A stretch of 64,000 bases of DNA from Pseudomonadota bacterium (lineage in GTDB: Bacteria > Pseudomonadota > Gammaproteobacteria > SURF-13). This document shows positions 6,371 to 45,706 of the stretch, piece after piece; the first letter of the stretch is position 1; each line of letters opens with the position of its first letter. The stretch covers positions 62,203-126,202 of the forward strand of contig JAQBXX010000001.1 of assembly GCA_027624315.1 (NCBI GenBank). Reading direction: 5' to 3'. The position numbers and the translations under genes are program-made. Under the pieces are notes generated by a model that saw nothing but the letters and a program-made list of their open reading frames with translations, did no database searches and was not told where the DNA came from.

Positions 6371-6410
6371 GTTGCACCTCGTACATTATCAACGCAGCAA
6401 CAAAACATAT

Positions 6411-6470
6411 CCCCTCCCCCTTGACGGGGGAGGGCCAGGGTGGGGGTGAAATGCCTGACCCTCACCCAAC
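6411..6470. repeat. GC-rich REP-like repeat
   Basis: cccctcccccttgacgggggagggccagggtgggggtgaaatgcc forms a stem-loop (ccctccccc/gggggaggg) followed by the agggtgggggt motif. Confidence 0.7.
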
Positions 6471-6482
6471 CCTCATATAACC

Positions 6483-7013
6483 CTAGCGCTTAAGCGGCTC
6501 CAGCACCCCGTCCAGATTCATCTCCTCGCACAGATTCATGAACTCATCGCGCAGCGCCGCAATGTGCACCGAGGCGGGGATGTTGACCGTCAGGTTGAGC
6601 GCAAACATCGGCGTGGCGGAATGCGCCGAGGTATAGCCGCTGGTGTAGAGGTCTTCGATGTTGATACTGCGCGCGGTGAAAAAGTCCGCCATGCGGTAGA
6701 TGATGCCGGGACGGTCCACGGTGACGATCTCGGCGATGTAAGGCAGCAGCGGAGTCTCGGTGGAGCGCACCTCGGTACGGCGGGCGCTGATCGTGAGCCC
6801 CAGCCGCTCCTGCAACGCGGACAAGCCGCCCTCCACCTTGGCAATCGCACTCCAGTTGCCGGTGATCATGAGCACAGCGGCAAACTCGCTCCCCAGCACC
6901 GTCATGCGGCTGTCGGCGATGGTGCAGCCGCACTCCATCAGCGCCTGCGCCAACTCCTTGAGCAGCCCGGGCCGGTCTTTACCCAAGGCGGAAATAACGA
7001 GCAAGACTTTCAT
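6483..7013 (-). CDS. gcvR: ACT-domain glycine cleavage regulator GcvR-like protein
   Basis: 176 aa with two ACT-like halves. It sits upstream of bcp, as gcvR does in enterobacteria and pseudomonads. Confidence 0.7.
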   Translation of the reverse strand: MKVLLVISALGKDRPGLLKELAQALMECGCTIADSRMTVLGSEFAAVLMITGNWSAIAKVEGGLSALQERLGLTISARRTEVRSTETPLLPYIAEIVTVDRPGIIYRMADFFTARSINIEDLYTSGYTSAHSATPMFALNLTVNIPASVHIAALRDEFMNLCEEMNLDGVLEPLKR

Positions 7014-7186
7014 TCGATATGGGCGCCCCAGCGCAACATTGGATAATGTGGATATTGATGGGATGTTAAGTGACTTTCATTATACAAACAATTCACCACC
7101 GCGGAAAAAGAAAAGCCCCTCGTGAGAGGGGCTTTGAGTAATTGGGCTTGTTTCGTATTCAGCCCAACAGTGCTTGTTGTGATGGG

Positions 7187-7610
7187 TTACAGCTTACAGA
7201 GAATTGGAGCAGAGCCTTGCGCGGTCAAGCATCCGCTACCGGTTTTAGCCCAAGTCGTAGCGCCGACACCCAAAGTAGGAATCAATATTAAAGTGGATGC
7301 CGCATTAGTGGTGGAGGTTGGCGTTACGGTAATAGTTCCATTTGCGACAGCAATGGACGCTACATGAGTTGTTGCTTGTGTGGCGGGGATGCCATTTGTC
7401 TCAATATCACAGCCTGTAACGGTACCAAGTTCTTGTGCACAGATAGCAACAGCGGTTTTGTATGCGCTTGACACTGCAACCACTTCTGCGAATTTAGCCT
7501 TAAACGTGTAATCTTGGTAAGCTGGAATCGCCACAGCCGCCAGAATACCAATGATGGCGACCACGATCATCAATTCAATCAGGGTAAAGCCTTGTTGCAG
7601 CTTTTTCATA
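7187..7610 (-). CDS. pilA: type IVa pilin (PilA)
   Basis: [34 protein letters not shown] is the class III signal peptide with the N-methylphenylalanine site. A C-terminal Cys...Cys loop is present. The gene is AT-rich relative to its flanks. An AGGAGC Shine-Dalgarno lies 7 nt upstream of the ATG at 7610. Confidence 0.85.
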
Positions 7611-36571: not shown

Positions 36572-37213
36572 TTAAACCCCGTAGCAGGAGCGGTAATTGT
36601 GGATGGCCTCAAGGTGCGGCCGCACTACAGCTCGTTGCTCCACGTAGCTCAGCAGTGTCTTGAGCGTGACGATACTCACCACCGGAATGCCGTAATTGTT
36701 TTGCACCTCCTGCACGGCGGACAGTTCGCCCTGACCGCGCTCCTGGCGGTCGAGCGCGATCAGCACGCCCGCAGGCTGCGCGCCCGCATCCTTGATGACG
36801 GCGACGGACTCACCCACCGAGATACCCGCGCTGATCACGTCGTCCACGATGAGCACGCGCCCCGCGAGCGGGGCGCCGACGATCAAACCGCCTTCACCGT
36901 GGCGCTTCGCCTCTTTGCGGTTGAAGGCATAAGGCACGTCGCGTCCGTGATGATCGGCCAGCGCGATGCTCACCGCCGCCACCAGCGGAATGCCCTTATA
37001 GGCCGGCCCGTACAGCATGTCGTACTCCACGCCGGAGTGAACCAATGCCGCAGCGTAATAGCGCCCAAGCCGCGCGAGGCTCGCGCCGGTATTGAACAGG
37101 CCGCTGTTGAAAAAATACGGACTCACGCGCCCGGACTTCAGCGTGAACTCGCCGAACTTGAGCACGCCGGTGTCCAGGGCAAAATCGAGAAATTCGTGTT
37201 GGTAATCCTGCAT
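36572..37213 (-). CDS. pyrE: orotate phosphoribosyltransferase
   Basis: [36 protein letters not shown]... with PRPP motif [11 protein letters not shown]. Start at the ATG at 37213; the ORF begins at 37249. Confidence 0.9.
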
Positions 37214-37286
37214 AGGCATTCCCGCAGCGGGGATTATAACCAAAACCATGCACGCGAAGTCATTTTACGGTACGCTTTAGCGCTTT

Positions 37287-37319
37287 ATCACGCTCAACAT
37301 GAATGGCATCCGCTCTGCG
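37287..37319 (+). repeat. left 33-bp direct repeat (copy of the first codons of the xth/crc-like gene)
   Basis: atcacgctcaacatgaatggcatccgctctgcg against 39328-39360 atcaccctcaacatgaacggcatccgctctgcg, 31/33 identical. Encodes ITLNMNGIRSA followed by a stop 3 codons later. Confidence 0.75.
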
Positions 37320-37372
37320 GCGCGCTGATGTCACACCAGACGACCGATTACTTCGGGCAGAGCCCCAGTTGC

Positions 37373-37735
37373 ATGTCTCGACACAAAACAATCCCGATTG
37401 TCGATCTCTTCGCGGGCCCGGGCGGGCTTGGGGAAGGATTTTCTGCCTTCACTACAGCCCATGACCAACATCCTTTCAGGGTAATGCTTTCGATTGAAAA
37501 GGACGGCGCTGCACACAGGACTCTTCTTCTGAGAACCTTCTTGCGGCAATTCCCCGATAACCGCGTCCCGAAGGATTATTATGAATTTCTCAGGAACTTT
37601 AAAGAACCGGAGAGCAGCAGACTCACCCGTCTCTATGGGAAGTATCCCAAAGAAGCTCAAAGAGCGGCCTGCCAAGCCATGCATGCCGAGCTTGGCGTAA
37701 CCGAACTGGCAACAATCAGACATGAATACTCATAA
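37373..37735 (+). pseudogene. N-terminal fragment (120 aa) of a C5 cytosine-specific DNA methyltransferase
   Basis: IPIVDLFAGPGGLGEGF is motif I (FxGxGG). The following block resembles the C5 methyltransferase region between motifs I and IV, but no PCQ or ENV motif appears and the frame stops at 37735. Low GC. Confidence 0.55.
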
Positions 37736-38510
37736 CTGGACAAGAGAGCAGCTAAAGCTGGCATTCCACCTTTATTGCCAGCTACCGTTTGGAAAGTTAC
37801 ATCACAGAAATCCAGAAATAATTCAGCTTGCAAAGCTAATTGGTCGAACACCATCAGCAGTTTCGATGAAATTAGGGAATTTTTCTAGCCTTGATCCCGC
37901 TATCACAAGTACCGGACGGAGTGGTCTAGGTAATGCCTCTAAAGCCGACCGTGAAATTTGGACTGAATTTCATGAAAATTGGGAGAAACTTGCGATTGAG
38001 TGCGACAGCTTAAGGCGGCAACTCAACGCAGGACTTGAAATACCAGCTACATCCGAATTCAATTTATCAACTGATGAATACCTTGGTGATTTCACTGGTG
38101 AAACTCGCAACGTAATCACAGAGCAACGCATTAAGCAGCAATTTTTCCGCAGGGCAGTGTTGAGTAGCTATCGCGGAAGATGCTGTATGACAGGACTATC
38201 TGAACCAAGATTACTGGTAGCCAGCCATATCGTCCCCTGGAGCGCAGACAGATCGAACCGTTTAAACCCGAGAAATGGCCTATGCTTGTCATCGTTGCAT
38301 GACAAAGCTTTTGACCAAGGACTGATTACGCTGACAGACAACTTCAGAATTATTCTCTCCGATAAACTACGAAGCAAAGACGAGCCCTTTATTAAGCAAG
38401 CGTTTTTTGCGCTAGAAGGACATGCCATAGAATTACCCGAACGTTTCTTGCCCAGCGTAGAATTTGTTGCATATCATCGTCAAGAGGTGTTTCTAGATAA
38501 CCGCGCATAA
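37722..38510 (+). CDS. HNH-family (HNH_2-like) putative restriction endonuclease
   Basis: 262 aa with C-terminal motif ASHIVPWSADRSNRLNPRNGLCLSSLHDKAFDQGLIT, the His-Asn-His beta-beta-alpha metal finger. AT-rich. Overlaps the methyltransferase fragment by 14 nt. Confidence 0.7.
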   Translation: MNTHNWTREQLKLAFHLYCQLPFGKLHHRNPEIIQLAKLIGRTPSAVSMKLGNFSSLDPAITSTGRSGLGNASKADREIWTEFHENWEKLAIECDSLRRQLNAGLEIPATSEFNLSTDEYLGDFTGETRNVITEQRIKQQFFRRAVLSSYRGRCCMTGLSEPRLLVASHIVPWSADRSNRLNPRNGLCLSSLHDKAFDQGLITLTDNFRIILSDKLRSKDEPFIKQAFFALEGHAIELPERFLPSVEFVAYHRQEVFLDNRA

Positions 38511-38516
38511 AAGCAT

Positions 38517-38927
38517 CTAAAGCCAACTTATCTTTACCTCGTTCTCGACTTGCTTAAACTCTTTATCGCCAGTGACCAATTCCGCTTTCCGATCCTTAGC
38601 CAAAGCTGCCGCAAAGCAATCCGCGAAGGACATGCGGTTCTTGGCTTTGAATGTTCCGGCAATACGCGCCAACTTCCAGTCAACATCCACAAATTCTATC
38701 CCAAGCAGCCTCAGCGTATCTATTGCCTTGTCCGCCTCGGTTTCGGACACTTCCCAGGCGATTATGTACCAAACCTCTCCGGCGTTCACGACCGACATGA
38801 GCAGCGGTATCCCGTGCTCATGGGCATCACCGATCAGGCTCGCCACTTTCGGGCCAGTGCTTTCGTCCTCCAGATAGGCCAGCACCGCCCACGAATCAAG
38901 CACGATAGCTTTCGGCCGGCGGGCCAT
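38517..38927 (-). CDS. vapC: PIN-domain toxin VapC (second copy)
   Basis: 136 aa, IVLDSWAVLAYLEDE...LLMSVVNAGE..., PIN fold. Confidence 0.8.
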   Translation of the reverse strand: MARRPKAIVLDSWAVLAYLEDESTGPKVASLIGDAHEHGIPLLMSVVNAGEVWYIIAWEVSETEADKAIDTLRLLGIEFVDVDWKLARIAGTFKAKNRMSFADCFAAALAKDRKAELVTGDKEFKQVENEVKISWL

Positions 38928-39157
38928 TAGATATCCCTCTCACGCTTCTTTTCCGCCGCCAGCGCCTTGAGCAGCCCCTTGCCCTTGTATTTTCCCCGCA
39001 TGCTCTGGATGTATTCAGGGGTAATCGGGGTGAGGACAATCTTGTGCGTCTGTTCGTCCACATCAATCTGGATTCTTGTCCCTTCCTTCATTCCAAGCCT
39101 TCTCCGCACCTTTGACGGGATCACGATCTGTCCCTTGGCGGTCAGGTAGGTTTCCAT
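38927..39157 (-). CDS. vapB: AbrB/MazE/SpoVT-family antitoxin (VapB)
   Basis: 76 aa, KGQIVIPSKVRRRLGMKEGTRIQID, a swapped-hairpin beta-barrel motif. Its stop overlaps the vapC start. Confidence 0.8.
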   Translation of the reverse strand: METYLTAKGQIVIPSKVRRRLGMKEGTRIQIDVDEQTHKIVLTPITPEYIQSMRGKYKGKGLLKALAAEKKRERDI

Positions 39158-39318
39158 GACGGCACCCTCAATTTCTGATATTTTTGTATTTTATACCATT
39201 ATTTAAAATGTAAGTCAAATATTATATTTCTTACTTTTTTCATAAGGCGGACATGCTGACGGCTTGCGCCCGCAGTCGGCGGGATGCGCCACAGTGCAAT
39301 TTAAGGTAGGCTGCGCGC

Positions 39319-40092
39319 ATGCGCATCATCACCCTCAACATGAACGGCATCCGCTCTGCGAACACCAAGGGATTTTTCCCGTGGATGCTGAAACAAAAAC
39401 CCGACGTCGTCTGCCTGCAGGAGACCAAGGCGCAGGAGCATCAACTGACGGACAACGCACTGCACCCGGACGGCTACCACAGCTATTTTCACGACGCCGT
39501 AAAAAAAGGCTACAGCGGCGTCGCACTCTACTGCAAGCACAAACCGGACAAGGTCATCATGGGCTTGGGCTGGCCGGACTTTGACGCCGAAGGACGTTAC
39601 ATCGAAGCGAGCTTTGGCAACCTGAGCGTCGTGTCATTGTATCTGCCTTCCGGCTCGTCCGGCCCGGAACGTCAAGCCGTAAAATTCGACATGCTCGAAC
39701 GCCTGGTGCCGGTGCTGAAAAAAATGCGCAACAGCAAACGCGAATACATCATCTGCGGCGACTGGAACATCGCCCATAAAAACATTGATCTCAAAAACTG
39801 GCGCAGCAATCAAAAGAACTCCGGCTTCCTGCCAGAAGAGCGCGCCTGGATGGATCAATTATTCGGCAAGCTCGGTTTCGTGGATGCGTTCCGCGTGGTG
39901 AATCAGGAACCGGAGCAATATACGTGGTGGTCAAACCGCGGTCAGGCGTGGGCGAAAAACGTCGGATGGCGCATTGATTATCACGTCACCACACCGGGCC
40001 TTGTGGATAAGGTCAAATCCGCTGCGATTTATAAAACGGAGCGCTTCTCCGACCACGCGCCGTTGACGATGAATTATGATTACACTTTCTGA
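39319..40092 (+). CDS. exodeoxyribonuclease III family protein (Xth paralog / Crc-like, pyrE-adjacent)
   Basis: 257 aa, MRIITLNMNGIRSA...VVCLQETKAQ...SDHAP. Position next to pyrE matches crc in Pseudomonas. The sequence alone cannot say whether it is a nuclease or a Crc-type regulator. Confidence 0.8.
   Translation: MRIITLNMNGIRSANTKGFFPWMLKQKPDVVCLQETKAQEHQLTDNALHPDGYHSYFHDAVKKGYSGVALYCKHKPDKVIMGLGWPDFDAEGRYIEASFGNLSVVSLYLPSGSSGPERQAVKFDMLERLVPVLKKMRNSKREYIICGDWNIAHKNIDLKNWRSNQKNSGFLPEERAWMDQLFGKLGFVDAFRVVNQEPEQYTWWSNRGQAWAKNVGWRIDYHVTTPGLVDKVKSAAIYKTERFSDHAPLTMNYDYTF
39328..39360 (+). repeat. right 33-bp direct repeat (inside the 5' end of the xth/crc-like gene)
   Basis: See the left repeat at 37287-37319. 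Confidence 0.75.
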
Positions 40093-40098
40093 TTTTAG

Positions 40099-40875
40099 TT
40101 GGGCGCATTAAAACGCATGAAGATACATAGGGCACAGCTAGGCGCAACAAAACTGAGCAAGGTACCGGAGAATGAACGGGTGTTGTTCGTCTTGCTCGGC
40201 CATTTTGTAAATGAAATAAACGTACTTAACAAGACGTTCTACTTATGCTCCCAGTTTCAAGCAGCGCCAAAGTGGCGATCGCATGCTCATACAAGCCAAG
40301 CTCTTGTATTCGCCCGGATACTTATTGGCAAGCTATATGAAGGCTGGAAATTACTGTGCAAAGGATACTTCGACTCGCAAATATCAAAAATCTACGATGA
40401 GCGTCTTAATCAGGAAGCTAAGGACGCACTCAGCAATCTCAAAAAGTACTTTGGGCGAGAAAATCTAATCGACACGATTAGAAACAGCTTCTCGTTTCAC
40501 TACTCCCTCCCAGATACACGGGCAGCCTTAGCCCGGGAACTTGATAATGAAGAGTTGCTCATGTATCTAGCGGATAACAATGGCAATACGCTCTACTACT
40601 TTTCCGAATACATTGTTAATACTGCGCTACTGGAAGCTATAGAGAAAGGGGATCCTGGCAAGGCTTTAGAGCGTCTGATTGGTGAAAGCGCGAAAGTTGT
40701 ACGCTGGTTTAATGAGTTGGCTAGCGGAATAATGACTCATGTTGTTGATAAGTATTTATTGGAAAGTGATGGAAAGCTCGTGTTAGAGTTAATTGATCTT
40801 GGCCACGTTCCGGTTGCCGAGCAAATCGAGATCCCATACTTCTTTACGTCAGAGTCAACCGGTAGGCATGAATAG
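40099..40875 (+). CDS. hypothetical protein in a low-GC islet (no recognisable family)
   Basis: 258 aa ORF, markedly AT-rich against a GC-rich background, with coding-like composition. An alternative start lies at the ATG at 40117. Confidence 0.5.
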   Translation: MGALKRMKIHRAQLGATKLSKVPENERVLFVLLGHFVNEINVLNKTFYLCSQFQAAPKWRSHAHTSQALVFARILIGKLYEGWKLLCKGYFDSQISKIYDERLNQEAKDALSNLKKYFGRENLIDTIRNSFSFHYSLPDTRAALARELDNEELLMYLADNNGNTLYYFSEYIVNTALLEAIEKGDPGKALERLIGESAKVVRWFNELASGIMTHVVDKYLLESDGKLVLELIDLGHVPVAEQIEIPYFFTSESTGRHE

Positions 40876-40956
40876 CGAACTCCGTCCAATTAAAGCGCGC
40901 AACAACAGCGCGTAAATACCTTTCCCAAAGGGAGAGGTATACAACCCACTCTTAAA

Positions 40957-42261
40957 ATGACACTTAAAGACTACCTCCACATCTTCACTAACCGCCGCGT
41001 GGCGGTGGTGCTGTTGCTCGGATTCTCCTCGGGGCTGCCGCTGGCGCTCTCCGGCGGCACGTTGCAGGCGTGGATGACGACTGCGGGGGTGGATTTGAAA
41101 ACCATCGGCATCTTTACGCTGGTGGGTTTGCCTTACACGCTCAAATTTCTCTGGGCGCCGTTCATGGATCGCTTTGTGCCGCCGTGGCTGGGGCGGCGGC
41201 GTGGCTGGATGGTCGCCACGCAGGTTGCGCTCATGCTGGGTATCGCGGCGATGGGACTGGGTTCGCCGCAGCACGCACTGTGGGCCTTGGCGGCGCTCGC
41301 CGTGTTTGTCGCCTTCACTTCAGCTTCACAGGACATTGCCTTCGATGCCTACCGCGCCGATGTGTTGCGCCCGGCGGAACGTGGCGTGGGCGCGGCGGTG
41401 TCGGTGATGGGCTATCGCATCGCGATGCTGGTGTCGGGCGCGGGCGCCTTGATTCTCGCCGACCACTTCGGCTGGCACACGACGTATCTCATCCTTGCGG
41501 GGTTGATGATTATAGGCGTCATCGCCACACTGCTCGGCCCGGAGCCGGACGGACACATCGCACCACCGCGCACCTTGCAGGAGGCGGTGACAGGGCCGTT
41601 AAAGGCCTTCGTTTCGCTGCACTCCCTCGCGGGCGCAGCGTGGATACTGCTGTTGATCGTGCTGTACAAGCTCGGTGATGCCTTCGCAGGCACATTGAGC
41701 ACTGCCTTTCTGCTGCGCGGCGTGGGTTTTTCGCTGACCGATGTCGGTGCGGTAAACAAGGGGCTGGGATTGCTCGCGCTGATCCTGGGCGCCTTGTTCG
41801 GCGGGGCGTTGCTGCCGAAGCTCGGGCTCTATCGTGCCTTGATGGTGTTCGGTGTGCTGCAGGCCGTTTCCAACCTGAGTTTCATGGCGCTGGCGTGGGT
41901 CGGCAAGAGTTATGCGATGCTGATCACCGCCGTGGTGTTTGAGCAGGTGAGCGGCGGCATGGGGACAGCGGCCTTTGTCGCGCTGCTCATGGCGCTGTGC
42001 GATCACCGCTACACCGCCACGCAGTTCGCGCTGTTCTCCGCCTTCGCCGCATTCGGCAGGCAGTATCTGGGGCCACCTGCCGGTGTGCTCGCCGACGAGT
42101 TGGGCTGGGTGATTTTTTTCTTCATCACCACGCTCGCCGCACTGCCGGGGTTGTGGCTGCTGTGGCGTATGCGTGCACGCATCAGCGGCCTGGAGGGCGG
42201 CAGCCCGGTTAATTCGGCTTACGCCGAAAGCGGTACAGCGCAATCTCGCCCAGTAGATTAG
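40957..42261 (+). CDS. ampG: muropeptide permease AmpG (MFS)
   Basis: 434 aa, 12-14 transmembrane segments, AmpG-like N-terminus (LLLGFSSGLPLALSGGTLQAWM). Confidence 0.85.
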   Translation: MTLKDYLHIFTNRRVAVVLLLGFSSGLPLALSGGTLQAWMTTAGVDLKTIGIFTLVGLPYTLKFLWAPFMDRFVPPWLGRRRGWMVATQVALMLGIAAMGLGSPQHALWALAALAVFVAFTSASQDIAFDAYRADVLRPAERGVGAAVSVMGYRIAMLVSGAGALILADHFGWHTTYLILAGLMIIGVIATLLGPEPDGHIAPPRTLQEAVTGPLKAFVSLHSLAGAAWILLLIVLYKLGDAFAGTLSTAFLLRGVGFSLTDVGAVNKGLGLLALILGALFGGALLPKLGLYRALMVFGVLQAVSNLSFMALAWVGKSYAMLITAVVFEQVSGGMGTAAFVALLMALCDHRYTATQFALFSAFAAFGRQYLGPPAGVLADELGWVIFFFITTLAALPGLWLLWRMRARISGLEGGSPVNSAYAESGTAQSRPVD

Positions 42262-42814
42262 GCAACAGCCGCATACCCCAACCGCCACGGTGCGCATGAT
42301 CGACCACGGTGCGCTGTAGCACGCTGATGCCGTTTTTCGCGCACAACTGCTCGAAATCCCTCAGCGTGCACAGATGGATGTTGGGCGTGTTGTACCACTC
42401 GTTCGGCAGGTTGCGTGACACCGGCATGTGCCCGCCGAGCGCAATCTGCACGCGGTTTTGCCAGTGGCCGAAATTGGGAAAGGTGACGATGCCCTCGCGT
42501 CCGACGCGCAACATCTCATCCAGCAGCCGGTCGGGGTAATACACCGCCTGCAGGGTCTGCGAGAGGATCACGTAATCGAACGAGTCGGCGTCGAAGTCGG
42601 ACAGGCCGGCGTCGAGGTCGGTCTGGATCACGTTCACGCCCGCCTCGATACACTTGATGATGTTGGCGCCGTCGATCTCCAGCCCGTAACTGCTCACGCC
42701 ACGCGTGGCATTCAGATACGCCAGCAGTGCGCCGTCGCCGCAGCCGAGATCGAGCACGCGGCTGCCGGGCGCGATCCATTCGCTGATGATTTCAAAATCC
42801 GGGCGCAGGGCCAT
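42209..42814 (-). CDS. metW: methionine biosynthesis protein MetW
   Basis: 201 aa with SAM-methyltransferase-like motif VLDLGCGDGALL. Lies directly downstream of metX. Its 3' end overlaps the ampG 3' end by about 50 bp, so one of the two stop assignments may be slightly off. Confidence 0.8.
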   Translation of the reverse strand: MALRPDFEIISEWIAPGSRVLDLGCGDGALLAYLNATRGVSSYGLEIDGANIIKCIEAGVNVIQTDLDAGLSDFDADSFDYVILSQTLQAVYYPDRLLDEMLRVGREGIVTFPNFGHWQNRVQIALGGHMPVSRNLPNEWYNTPNIHLCTLRDFEQLCAKNGISVLQRTVVDHAHRGGWGMRLLPNLLGEIALYRFRRKPN

Positions 42815-43976: not shown

Positions 43977-45101
43977 GGCGGTTTCAATGACCAAGTGCAA
44001 AAAGCGCAGCATGATGCTGCCTGAAATCAAACGCATCCGGGGTGAACAACTCCGCGGGACACTTGAAGCCCAACGTCTTGCGTGGCCGGGTATTCAGTTT
44101 CCAGGCAATCGCATCCAGTTCCTTCTGGGTGAAGCCACTCAGGTCGCTGCCCTTGGGCAGGTACTGCCGCAACAGGCCGTTGGTGTTCTCGTTGATGCCG
44201 CGCTGCCAGGGGCTGTGCGGATCGGCGAAGTAGACCTTCACCCCGGTGGCTTCCGTCAGTCGTTGATGCGCCGCCATTTCACGGCCCTGATCGTAAGTGA
44301 GCGACAGACGCTTTTGCGCCTCGATCCGGTTGAGCACATGGCTGAAGCCTTCGAGCGCCGCTTCGGCACCGGCGTCGTTCATGCGCGACAGCACCGTGAA
44401 CAGGGTGGCGCGCTCCACCAGGGTGCCGACCGCCGAGCGGTTGTGCGCCCCCTTGATGAGATCGCCCTCCCAGTGCCCCGGCACCAGCCGCTCTTCCACT
44501 TCCGGTGGGCGATCATGAATGCTGACCATGGCGGGGATCTGACCGCGCCGGTCTTCACCCCGCGCACGGGGTCGGTGTTTGGCATGGCCGAAACGCAGCC
44601 AGCCAATCACCGCCGTGCGCAGCTCACCACGCGGCATGGCGTAGATCGCGGTGTAGATGGTTTCGTGAGAAACCCGCAACAAAGGCTGGTCGGGATGCAC
44701 GGCTTGCAGTGTGCCAGCAATCTGCTCGGGCGAGTAGCCTGCCTTCAGGTAGCGCAGCACCGGCTTCCACAGGGCGGTTCCGGGCTGCAGGCGGCGCTCC
44801 ACCCGTGGGATGGCCGTGCAGGCTTGGGCGCGCTGATGGGCCGCTTCGGCACGGTAGCCGCCGGCCAACGCAGGGCGTCCCGGGCCGCGACGCGCCTTCG
44901 GGCGAGCCCAGCCGTTGCGGCAGAGTTCGCGGGAAAGCGTGGAGGCCGAACGATTCAACCCCGCGGCAATCGCCGCCGGTTTGATGCCCATTTCCAGTTG
45001 CGTTTGGATCATCGTTCGCTCTTCAATACTCAACTGCTGGTAGATTTTCCCCATGCAACATTGTCTCCTGAAAATGTTGCACTTGGTATTTGAGCGCGCC
45101 C
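43977..45101 (-). mobile_element. complete IS30-family insertion sequence (about 1.1 kb) with terminal inverted repeats
   Basis: Terminal inverted repeats ggcggtttcaatgaccaagtgcaa (43977-44000) and ttgcacttggtatttgagcgcgcc (45078-45101). Candidate 3-bp direct duplication ctt at 43974-43976 and 45101-45103. The internal transposase ORF ends within the repeat. Confidence 0.85.
43984..45054 (-). CDS. IS30-family transposase (DDE)
   Basis: 356 aa with an N-terminal HTH (EERTMIQTQLEMGIKPAAIA) and a C-terminal DDE domain (HWEGDLI...DQGREMA...). Confidence 0.9.
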   Translation of the reverse strand: MGKIYQQLSIEERTMIQTQLEMGIKPAAIAAGLNRSASTLSRELCRNGWARPKARRGPGRPALAGGYRAEAAHQRAQACTAIPRVERRLQPGTALWKPVLRYLKAGYSPEQIAGTLQAVHPDQPLLRVSHETIYTAIYAMPRGELRTAVIGWLRFGHAKHRPRARGEDRRGQIPAMVSIHDRPPEVEERLVPGHWEGDLIKGAHNRSAVGTLVERATLFTVLSRMNDAGAEAALEGFSHVLNRIEAQKRLSLTYDQGREMAAHQRLTEATGVKVYFADPHSPWQRGINENTNGLLRQYLPKGSDLSGFTQKELDAIAWKLNTRPRKTLGFKCPAELFTPDAFDFRQHHAALFALGH

Positions 45102-45125: not shown

Positions 45126-45392
45126 TTACGCCGCCTTTCTGCGCTTCATCACTTGATCCAGATCGTAGGTGGCCTGAAGGTTCATCCAAACCTTGGCGGA
45201 TGTACCTAGTGCCTTGGCCAAATCCAGCGCCGCCTCTGCAGTAATGCCTCTTTTGCCCTTGATTAACTCATTCAATCGCGCACGCGTCCACCCCAGTTTC
45301 TTCGCAAATGCGGCCTGGGTGATGTCGTCTGGAATGAGGAACTCCTCCAGAAGAATCTCTCCCGGATGAAACGGATTTCTGGGCTGACGCAT
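45126..45392 (-). CDS. higA: HigA-family antitoxin (XRE HTH)
   Basis: MRQPRNPFHPGEILLEEFL... with a helix-turn-helix (QAAFAKKLGWTRARLNELIKG). The ORF could start at 45419. Confidence 0.75.
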   Translation of the reverse strand: MRQPRNPFHPGEILLEEFLIPDDITQAAFAKKLGWTRARLNELIKGKRGITAEAALDLAKALGTSAKVWMNLQATYDLDQVMKRRKAA

Positions 45393-45415
45393 GATATTTA
45401 CCTCTTCATCCAGCT

Positions 45416-45706
45416 TCAATGATAATCAACAACCTGTACATCACTGGCATTACCGTCCTGCCACCTGAAAACTACCCGCCACTGGCTATTGATGCGAATA
45501 GAGTGGTAGCCCTTCCATTTGCCTTTTAATGCCTCAAGCCGGTTGCCGGGCGGAACGCGCAAATCCAACAACTCAGCGGCATCATGCAGATAGAGCAGTT
45601 TTCTGCGCGCCGCGCGCGTTACATCGGGCGGAAATGACAGCATATCCTTACTGCGCCGGTCGAGAAACAGATCCTGTGCCAGCTTATTTCCAAAGCCCAA
45701 AATCAT
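45416..45706 (-). CDS. higB: HigB-like toxin (RelE/ParE superfamily, plasmid-maintenance killer)
   Basis: 96 aa, ...LEALKGKWKGYHSIRINSQWRVVFRW, toxin-first higBA order. The palindrome tatcgaaactcgata at 45711-45725 upstream is a likely operator. Confidence 0.75.
   Translation of the reverse strand: MILGFGNKLAQDLFLDRRSKDMLSFPPDVTRAARRKLLYLHDAAELLDLRVPPGNRLEALKGKWKGYHSIRINSQWRVVFRWQDGNASDVQVVDYH

Follow-up and report, generated by a model that had tools for sequence, protein, structure and literature searches.

The window analysed here is a 64,000-nucleotide stretch of a gammaproteobacterial genome of the SURF-13 lineage (GenBank assembly GCA_027624315.1, contig JAQBXX010000001.1, positions 62,203 to 126,202), and its plus-strand open reading frame (ORF) at 40099-40875 appears to encode a stand-alone member of a large unnamed protein family that belongs to, or lies close to, the HEPN superfamily, whose members are metal-independent ribonucleases. 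The putative active centre is formed by R122-N-x4-H128, an invariant motif located where a bundle helix ends, and K72 and E75 on a neighbouring helix probably assist it. The gene arrived by horizontal transfer, directly behind xth, as a unit that is compact (about 800 bp) and promoterless, and is probably transcribed by read-through from xth. The ribonuclease would remain latent until a trigger such as phage infection or stress, upon which it would cleave cellular or phage RNA and cause growth arrest in an abortive-infection or toxin-like manner. Taken as a whole, this reading of the ORF as a latent stand-alone HEPN-like ribonuclease cassette with an abortive-infection or toxin-like effector role is given slightly better than even odds.

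Counted from TTG, the ORF comprises 258 amino acids. The true start is almost certainly the ATG at 40117, giving a 252-residue product (40117-40875), because the N-termini of homologues align there and the TTG falls within a GTTGGGC heptamer (40098-40104) that is discussed below. The ratio of nonsynonymous to synonymous divergence (dN/dS) was 0.24 between the ORF and its copy in the related locus L064 (loci are cited by such numbers), and 0.21 between the family members of L007 and L009. These values indicate purifying selection, and the ORF is therefore a genuine coding gene and not a chance reading frame. An earlier note, made from the letters of the window alone, had described this frame as far lower in guanine-cytosine (GC) content than the flanking ampG and pyrE genes and as an orphan of no recognisable family. 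The frame is present as described, and the first statement held. In windows of 400 nt, GC was 0.43-0.45 over 40000-40999, compared with 0.655 in ampG (41000-41399), 0.65 in pyrE (36600-36999) and 0.52-0.56 in xth. The second was correct for curated libraries, since no match was obtained in Pfam, PADLOC, NCBIfam or PHROGs, the PADLOC 2023 defence models giving none at E<=1, but the word "orphan" is not appropriate.

Judged by sequence similarity, the ORF belongs to a large and widespread family. A word-indexed search returned 28 homologues of 39-93% identity, all about 250 amino acids long and all labelled "hypothetical", and an exhaustive phmmer search found 1,274 clusters at the 50%-identity level with E<=1e-3, 794 with E<=1e-10 and 133 with E<=1e-30, with nearly all members 240-260 amino acids long and aligning end to end. 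Longer members carry N-terminal extensions without any Pfam domain. A scan of species-representative genomes yielded 48 loci with family members, none of them more than 58% identical to the window ORF. The family occurs in Gamma-, Beta-, Delta-, Alpha- and Zetaproteobacteria, Acidobacteriota, Nitrospirota, Chloroflexi, Planctomycetes, Clostridia and others, and its cultured carriers include Azotobacter chroococcum, the Burkholderia anthina/cepacia complex and Teredinibacter waterburyi. No family match was found in phages, and plasmids gave only partial 29% matches, on four Bradyrhizobium plasmids. One 236-residue member, P0013 (L004:8001-8711; KAF0190589.1/TND04050.1), is labelled "S-adenosyl-L-homocysteine hydrolase" in GenBank although it has no such domain; this label is almost certainly a mis-annotation. 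The family gene exceeds its own 5-kb flanks on either side in AT content in 50 of 51 loci, the mean difference being 9.2 points, so that low relative GC is a trait of the whole family. In about 5 of 54 loci (about 9%), the gene is split into two ORFs by a frameshift or stop, which suggests frequent decay.

Relatives of the window were located through a search with xth, a core housekeeping gene that is kept in the same synteny among them. In L062 and L063, whose xth is 83% identical, the order radC-rpmB-rpmG-desaturase-pyrE-xth-ampG-...-metW-metX is retained, and pyrE and xth as well as xth and ampG directly abut. These loci represent the empty site both for the ORF and for an HNH/VapBC islet that precedes xth in the window, and the homology of the window to L062 was observed to break exactly at the xth stop codon. 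In L064 and L065 (xth 94% identical), xth is followed by a family ORF and then by a Y1 transposase. Between the window and L064, identity is 71-95% across VapBC-xth and 95-99% across 40149-40848, with homology ending at 40894, and synonymous divergence (dS) is 0.070 for the ORF as opposed to 0.54 for the adjacent xth of the same genome pair. Therefore, a unit of about 800 bp was exchanged much later than its flanks diverged. Horizontal acquisition, which the earlier note had proposed together with a check of presence and absence across strains, is strongly supported by the empty site in L062/L063, the different cargo of L060 and the disparity in dS.

The junction between xth and ampG is a variable hotspot in this lineage. 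In L060 and L061 (xth 90% identical), it is occupied by a 134-aa ORF, a group II intron reverse transcriptase, a 195-aa ORF and a Y1 transposase. The empty junction of L062 contains two hairpins, GGGCACG-N5-CGTGCCC, resembling repetitive extragenic palindromic (REP) elements. In L064, a 35-nt palindrome lies between the family ORF and the Y1 transposase; the window has neither the palindrome nor the Y1 gene. This hairpin was considered as a possible attC site and rejected, because the same palindrome sits inverted behind xth in L060, where there is no family gene, and it is thus regarded as REP-like.

By what vehicle does such a unit move? The family very probably travels in integron cassettes. 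An exact GTTRRRY core located 8-45 nt upstream of the start was found in 10 of 52 family loci, where 1.1 would be expected, and eight of these ten read GTTRGGY. A strict scan detected attC sites starting between -15 and +60 nt from the stop codon in 4 of 54 loci (L009, L015, L029 and L066), compared with 0.57 expected from the loci's own background. In L009, GTTGGGC precedes the gene and the sequence GCCCAAC-N49-GTTGGGC begins 4 nt after the stop, forming a strongly folding 63-nt attC with perfectly complementary R'' and R' cores. Pairing between the 5' core and the R'' that follows the same gene extends to seven of seven positions in L009 and to six of seven in both L029 and L066, as for one cassette, and L066 is a two-cassette array in which BrnT/BrnA is followed by the family gene. 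Further attC-like elements occur in L021 and L039. Pairing of the 5' core with an R'' upstream of it failed in most loci, and is not expected for own-cassette pairing. No integron integrase was identified beside any family copy. The only recombinase found to adjoin one is a divergent 368-aa tyrosine recombinase next to the split copy of L056 (L056:8604-9710, minus strand), in an integron-like layout; its scores were 78 bits against the integron-integrase model, whose cutoff is 265, and 108 bits against an archaeal XerA/integron-integrase model with a cutoff of 220.

For the window copy itself, an integron origin is favoured, if modestly. Its GTTGGGC lies 12 nt before the ATG and 5 nt past the xth stop, where the empty-site homology ends, and has the form and position of the G/TTRRRY core found a few nucleotides before the ORF of a cassette. 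The lack of an attC directly 3' of the ORF weighs against this origin. An attC would have the layout R''-L''...L'-R', span 55-150 nt and fold in its bottom strand. For a weak R''-like heptamer, located 8 nt beyond the stop, neither an R' partner nor an attC-like fold was found, and no other convincing attC was detected near the ORF in the window. Because the 5' core is retained and an attC is not recognisable, the window copy looks like a cassette fixed or decayed outside an integron, similar to a SALIN. CALINs are clusters of attC sites without an integrase (PMC4889954), and SALINs are single cassettes that IntI has inserted at a genomic attG and that are expressed when placed behind a resident promoter (bioRxiv 10.1101/2022.09.11.507474). 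Like these, the window copy would be a promoterless single cassette that has no integrase and sits directly downstream of a resident gene able to drive its expression; unlike a SALIN, which has an attC by definition, it shows the 5' core only.

Alternatively, the unit may have been placed behind xth by another route, such as homologous recombination between relatives or a REP/RAYT-associated rearrangement of the xth-ampG hotspot, with GTTGGGC being coincidental, and this retains a considerable probability, somewhat short of even. Such a route is consistent with the absence of an attC 3' of the ORF in L064 as well as in the window, with the REP-like palindrome and Y1 (RAYT/IS200-like) transposase that follow the L064 ORF, and with the absence of any integron integrase nearby; moreover, a 7-mer core is expected by chance within an interval of 38 nt in about 2% of loci. 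Weighing against it are the location of the core, which is no more than 6 nt from the exact point where homology with the empty site breaks off, the 12-nt spacing between core and start that resembles those of L009, L066, L042 and L021, and the independent occurrence of the family in canonical cassettes. Between the ORF and the ampG start, the window also contains two small separate hairpins unrelated to attC, GCGCG-N7-CGCGC (40895-40912) and ATACCTTTCCC-AAA-GGGAGAGGTAT (40916-40940). Neither is followed by a T-run, both are absent from the spacers of the relatives, and together they fold better than shuffled sequences (z -2.9).

Consensus scans of the plus strand showed no promoter-like site in 39200-41100 and no terminator-like site between xth and the ORF, and the 24-nt leader contains no obvious Shine-Dalgarno sequence. 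A short promoterless unit is characteristic of cassettes, and read-through from xth would be the simplest model of expression.

The case for a ribonuclease begins with R122 and H128, which are the only invariant columns across 103 diverse members and are kept in 178 of 178 retrieved members. Their spacing (R122-x5-H128) falls within the HEPN Rx4-6H motif. The residue that follows the arginine, position 123 here, is a polar N, D or H in HEPN proteins; 149 of the 178 members have N and 14 have D (163/178). The model of the ORF protein is predicted with confidence to be a helical bundle. Assignment of its secondary structure by DSSP placed R122 within helix 117-126, H128 in the loop 127-130 and the next helix at 131-138, and this helix-end placement in the predicted structure matches the definition of the superfamily. 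K72 (173 of 179 members) and E75 (172 of 179) both lie on helix 52-85 of the model. HEPN domains usually have a conserved acidic residue in helix 2, typically within Ex3[KR] (PMC3710099), and the order found here, KxxE, is unlike that arrangement.

Neither the ORF nor the 103 members gave a significant profile match to a recognised HEPN family. Sub-threshold echoes were obtained for Ribonuc_2-5A (0.0049), PaREP1 (0.016), CARF_HEPN (0.0028) and Csm6 (0.015). An hhalign comparison with the single PF05168 HEPN protein of L009 gave a probability of 0.5%, which, from one sequence only, is uninformative. Profile searches of PDB sequences with alignments of 29 and 103 sequences returned chance matches only, a PADLOC scan of the 103 members gave only single-member sub-threshold matches, and the Foldseek comparison of a predicted model, which the earlier note had suggested, yielded nothing below E 0.3 in PDB and BFVD. 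Homology to HEPN and metal-independent ribonuclease activity are predicted for the ORF protein. That the protein is instead a non-nuclease helical bundle, for example a regulator or a module that binds a ligand, nucleic acid or protein, in which the arginine and histidine serve binding and not catalysis and the resemblance to HEPN is convergent, is improbable: in 178 sequences two residues and no others are invariant, they are spaced as in HEPN, a polar N/D follows the arginine and the site is at a helix end, and every weak profile echo came from HEPN families and not from random ones.

The ORFs lying up to 6 kb away were compared all-versus-all across about 50 non-redundant loci, and no conserved neighbour and no conserved antitoxin partner emerged, the only recurrent item being unrelated ABC ATPases at varying distances. 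The architecture of the family is that of a solo gene. Copies were found between gpx and der, after a methyltransferase, after recBCD with IS110, after alanine transaminase and after htpG-BrnT-BrnA (L066), and many lie downstream of housekeeping genes in the same orientation. The copy of L009 is part of a defence-like island with AAA_13, RmuC, MNT/HEPN, UDG and WYL, that of L068 adjoins a PIN/DUF433 pair, and some others adjoin Drt4, Drt6, type IIG restriction-modification (R-M), DISARM DrmMI or BovA genes, with R-M genes adjacent in few loci only. The Exo_endo_phos gene that lies upstream of the L068 copy was considered as an xth orthologue and rejected, the common upstream domain being a coincidence. 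No Rfam RNA family was found in the window region or in the cassette-type loci.

The abortive-infection or toxin-like reading draws on the catalytic signature, on population genetics of the kind seen in conflict genes, on carriage in cassettes, on the precedent of an HEPN AbiU2 cassette described below, and on gene company, namely the toxin-antitoxin (TA) pairs and HNH nuclease of the window, BrnTA in L066 and the defence genes that adjoin some copies. Several observations weigh against it. Most neighbours of family genes are housekeeping genes, the immediate neighbours have about as many PADLOC matches as control genes 5-6 positions away (rough counts, as the scan tallies families rather than proteins), and no known defence model matches the ORF protein. 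The earlier suggestion of a defence or addiction function is plausible and agrees with the HEPN-like signature and cassette carriage; the PADLOC check proposed with it gave no match, and the neighbours are no richer in defence genes than the controls. What the ORF represents is probably a toxin or anti-phage gene that stands alone and belongs to a general type already known.

An accessory RNA-processing or stress ribonuclease that benefits the host directly, through dormancy or translation control and not through phage resistance, is a less likely alternative, though compatible with these data. Integron-cassette HEPN proteins have been proposed to induce dormancy under stress (PMC3710099), and the housekeeping neighbours with copies downstream in the same orientation, together with the missing defence enrichment, are in line with such a role; patchy spread, an empty site, AT-richness, split or pseudogenised copies and recent exchange are typical of conflict genes instead, and the copies beside Drt4, Drt6, type IIG R-M, DISARM DrmMI and BovA or in the L009 island also argue for conflict. 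The least probable reading is that of a toxin or other component of a TA or addiction module whose partner could be, for example, a short ORF that overlaps it, an RNA encoded antisense or in cis, or a gene elsewhere. In its favour, toxins with cognate antitoxins are common among HEPN proteins (HepT/MntA, RnlA/RnlB), the family often lies beside TA pairs (VapBC, BrnTA, PIN/DUF433), and an AbiU2-type cassette could not be cloned alone (2026 preprint). Against it, no neighbour is conserved in about 50 loci, the exchanged unit has only 24 nt ahead of the ORF and about 19 nt behind it, the TA pairs next to family genes are of a different family at each locus and form a separate cassette in L066, and Rfam detects no RNA in the region.

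The latent stand-alone HEPN-like ribonuclease that we favour is not a new kind of system: there are earlier descriptions of HEPN ribonucleases, of HEPN integron cassettes and of cassettes that lie outside integrons. An integron-cassette HEPN family (PDB 3jrt, Vpc_cass2) is listed in Table 1 of PMC3710099. The ORF protein is only 7% identical to 3jrt, without a profile-level match, and exceeds it in length by about 85 residues, having an additional region (about 131-179) as well as small beta strands at its termini; descriptions of 3jrt are confined to Gammaproteobacteria, whereas the present family spans many phyla. The AbiU2-type proteins (Lactococcus AbiU; Pfam HEPN_AbiU2) are a HEPN abortive-infection family with a conserved Rx4-6H motif (PMC3710099), and a HEPN-AbiU2 integron cassette from V. 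mimicus, which could not be cloned alone, protected Escherichia coli against T4 and T7 (2026 preprint). UniRef labels the Azotobacter family member P0030 "HEPN AbiU2-like domain-containing", but this label was not reproduced, as neither the ORF protein nor P0030 nor any of the 103 members matched HEPN_AbiU2 or PADLOC AbiU. AbiU2 operons contain a Sel1-repeat protein or R-M genes (PMC3710099, Table 1), and the Sel1-repeat partner is absent around the present family. HepT (PDB 8xdj, 7ae2, 5yep) has about 130 residues and a typical Rx4H motif and is always paired with the nucleotidyltransferase antitoxin MntA, unlike the present family with its about 250 residues, its Rx5H motif and no conserved partner. 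AbiV, AbiD/F, ApeA and prophage HepS share the proposed mode of a single latent HEPN protein that cleaves RNA upon phage infection; the ORF protein has no sequence, PADLOC or significant fold match to these effectors, HepS (9oik) being reached by Foldseek at E 1.3 only.

Coordinates of the features are collected in the following table; positions refer to the window unless a locus is named.

Table 1. Features of the ORF, its cassette-like unit and its surroundings
Feature	Position	Strand	Remark
Member of a large unnamed family, 252 aa, predicted to be a HEPN-like ribonuclease with a helical bundle	40117..40875	+	
R122-N-S-F-S-F-H128, putative Rx5H catalytic motif	40480..40500	+	sole invariant columns
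K72-L-Y-E75, conserved basic/acidic pair in second long helix	40330..40341	+	
Inserted single-gene unit (candidate cassette), ~800 bp	40093..40894	+	24-nt 5' leader, ORF, ~19-nt 3' tail
GTTGGGC, integron R'-type core (GTTRRRY), putative 5' cassette boundary	40098..40104	+	
GTCCAAT, weak R''-like heptamer, 8 nt after stop	40884..40890	+	5/7 complement of 5' core, not significant
xth-ampG junction spacer	40093-40956; L060:3266-6966; L064:2843-5191; L062:6775-6867		
xth (exodeoxyribonuclease III), core housekeeping gene	39319..40092	+	TIGR00633 E 6e-83
pyrE	36572-37249	-	
HNH_2 nuclease	37722-38510	+	PADLOC HNH model PDLC04132 at 8e-122
VapC/PIN	38517-38927	-	
MazE/AbrB-type antitoxin	38927-39157	-	
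AmpG-like major facilitator superfamily (MFS) gene	40957-42261		
Split family genes	L033, L035, L055, L056, L059; position about 10000, or 6400-7400		

The identities that had been guessed for pyrE, HNH, VapBC, xth and ampG were confirmed by Pfam, PADLOC and NCBIfam matches, and the further proposal that the ORF and the HNH/VapBC islet form one acquired patch was not. The islet (about 37320-39320) is bracketed by a 40-nt direct repeat of 90% identity (37280-37319 and 39321-39360), whose right copy comprises the opening 40 nt of the xth coding sequence and whose left copy lies just beyond the pyrE start. Because this repeat duplicates the start of xth and the islet is missing in L062/L063, integration of the islet seems to have taken place within the 5' end of xth, which it rebuilt, by a mechanism distinct from that of the ORF unit. 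Islet and ORF thus represent two separate insertions on either side of xth, as their boundaries differ, with a 40-nt xth duplication for the former and an integron-type core for the latter. The HNH_2 protein also matches a type II restriction-enzyme HNH model at 1.6e-46 and, weakly, the NCBIfam "phosphorothioated DNA-binding restriction endonuclease" (66 bits, cutoff 180); its gene is solitary, without an adjacent methyltransferase or dnd genes. On the other side, ampG and metW (42209-42814, minus strand) overlap convergently by about 50 nt in the window, where L062/L063 have an extra 429-aa gene (L062:8258-9547) that is absent from window positions 42209-42261. Reading of the translations further revealed an IS30-like transposase ORF (43984-45054, minus strand) between metX and ettA and, beside it, two small ORFs that resemble a HigB/HigA-type pair (45126-45419 and 45416-45706, minus strand); in this stretch, GC falls to about 0.51.

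What would confirmation of these predictions mean? For the window, the annotation would change from an orphan to a defined mobile cassette, and the ORF is a reasonable candidate for a single-gene defence screen. A more far-reaching scheme, in which the ORF is the founding example of this widespread, unannotated family of more than 1,200 clusters of partner-less HEPN-like ribonucleases and the family is a new single-gene abortive-infection system that spreads as promoterless integron cassettes and becomes fixed outside integrons behind constitutive housekeeping genes (xth, htpG, alaA, gpx, recD), from which it borrows transcription, is tentative and on balance doubtful. If the predictions are confirmed, more than 1,000 clusters that now carry the label "hypothetical protein" would be given a predicted catalytic centre (R122/H128) together with a function open to testing, and a stand-alone HEPN ribonuclease would be added to the candidates for single-gene defence or toxin systems that are missed by PADLOC, Pfam and NCBIfam. 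The family would also provide a natural case of integron-type cassettes that settle outside integrons behind housekeeping genes.
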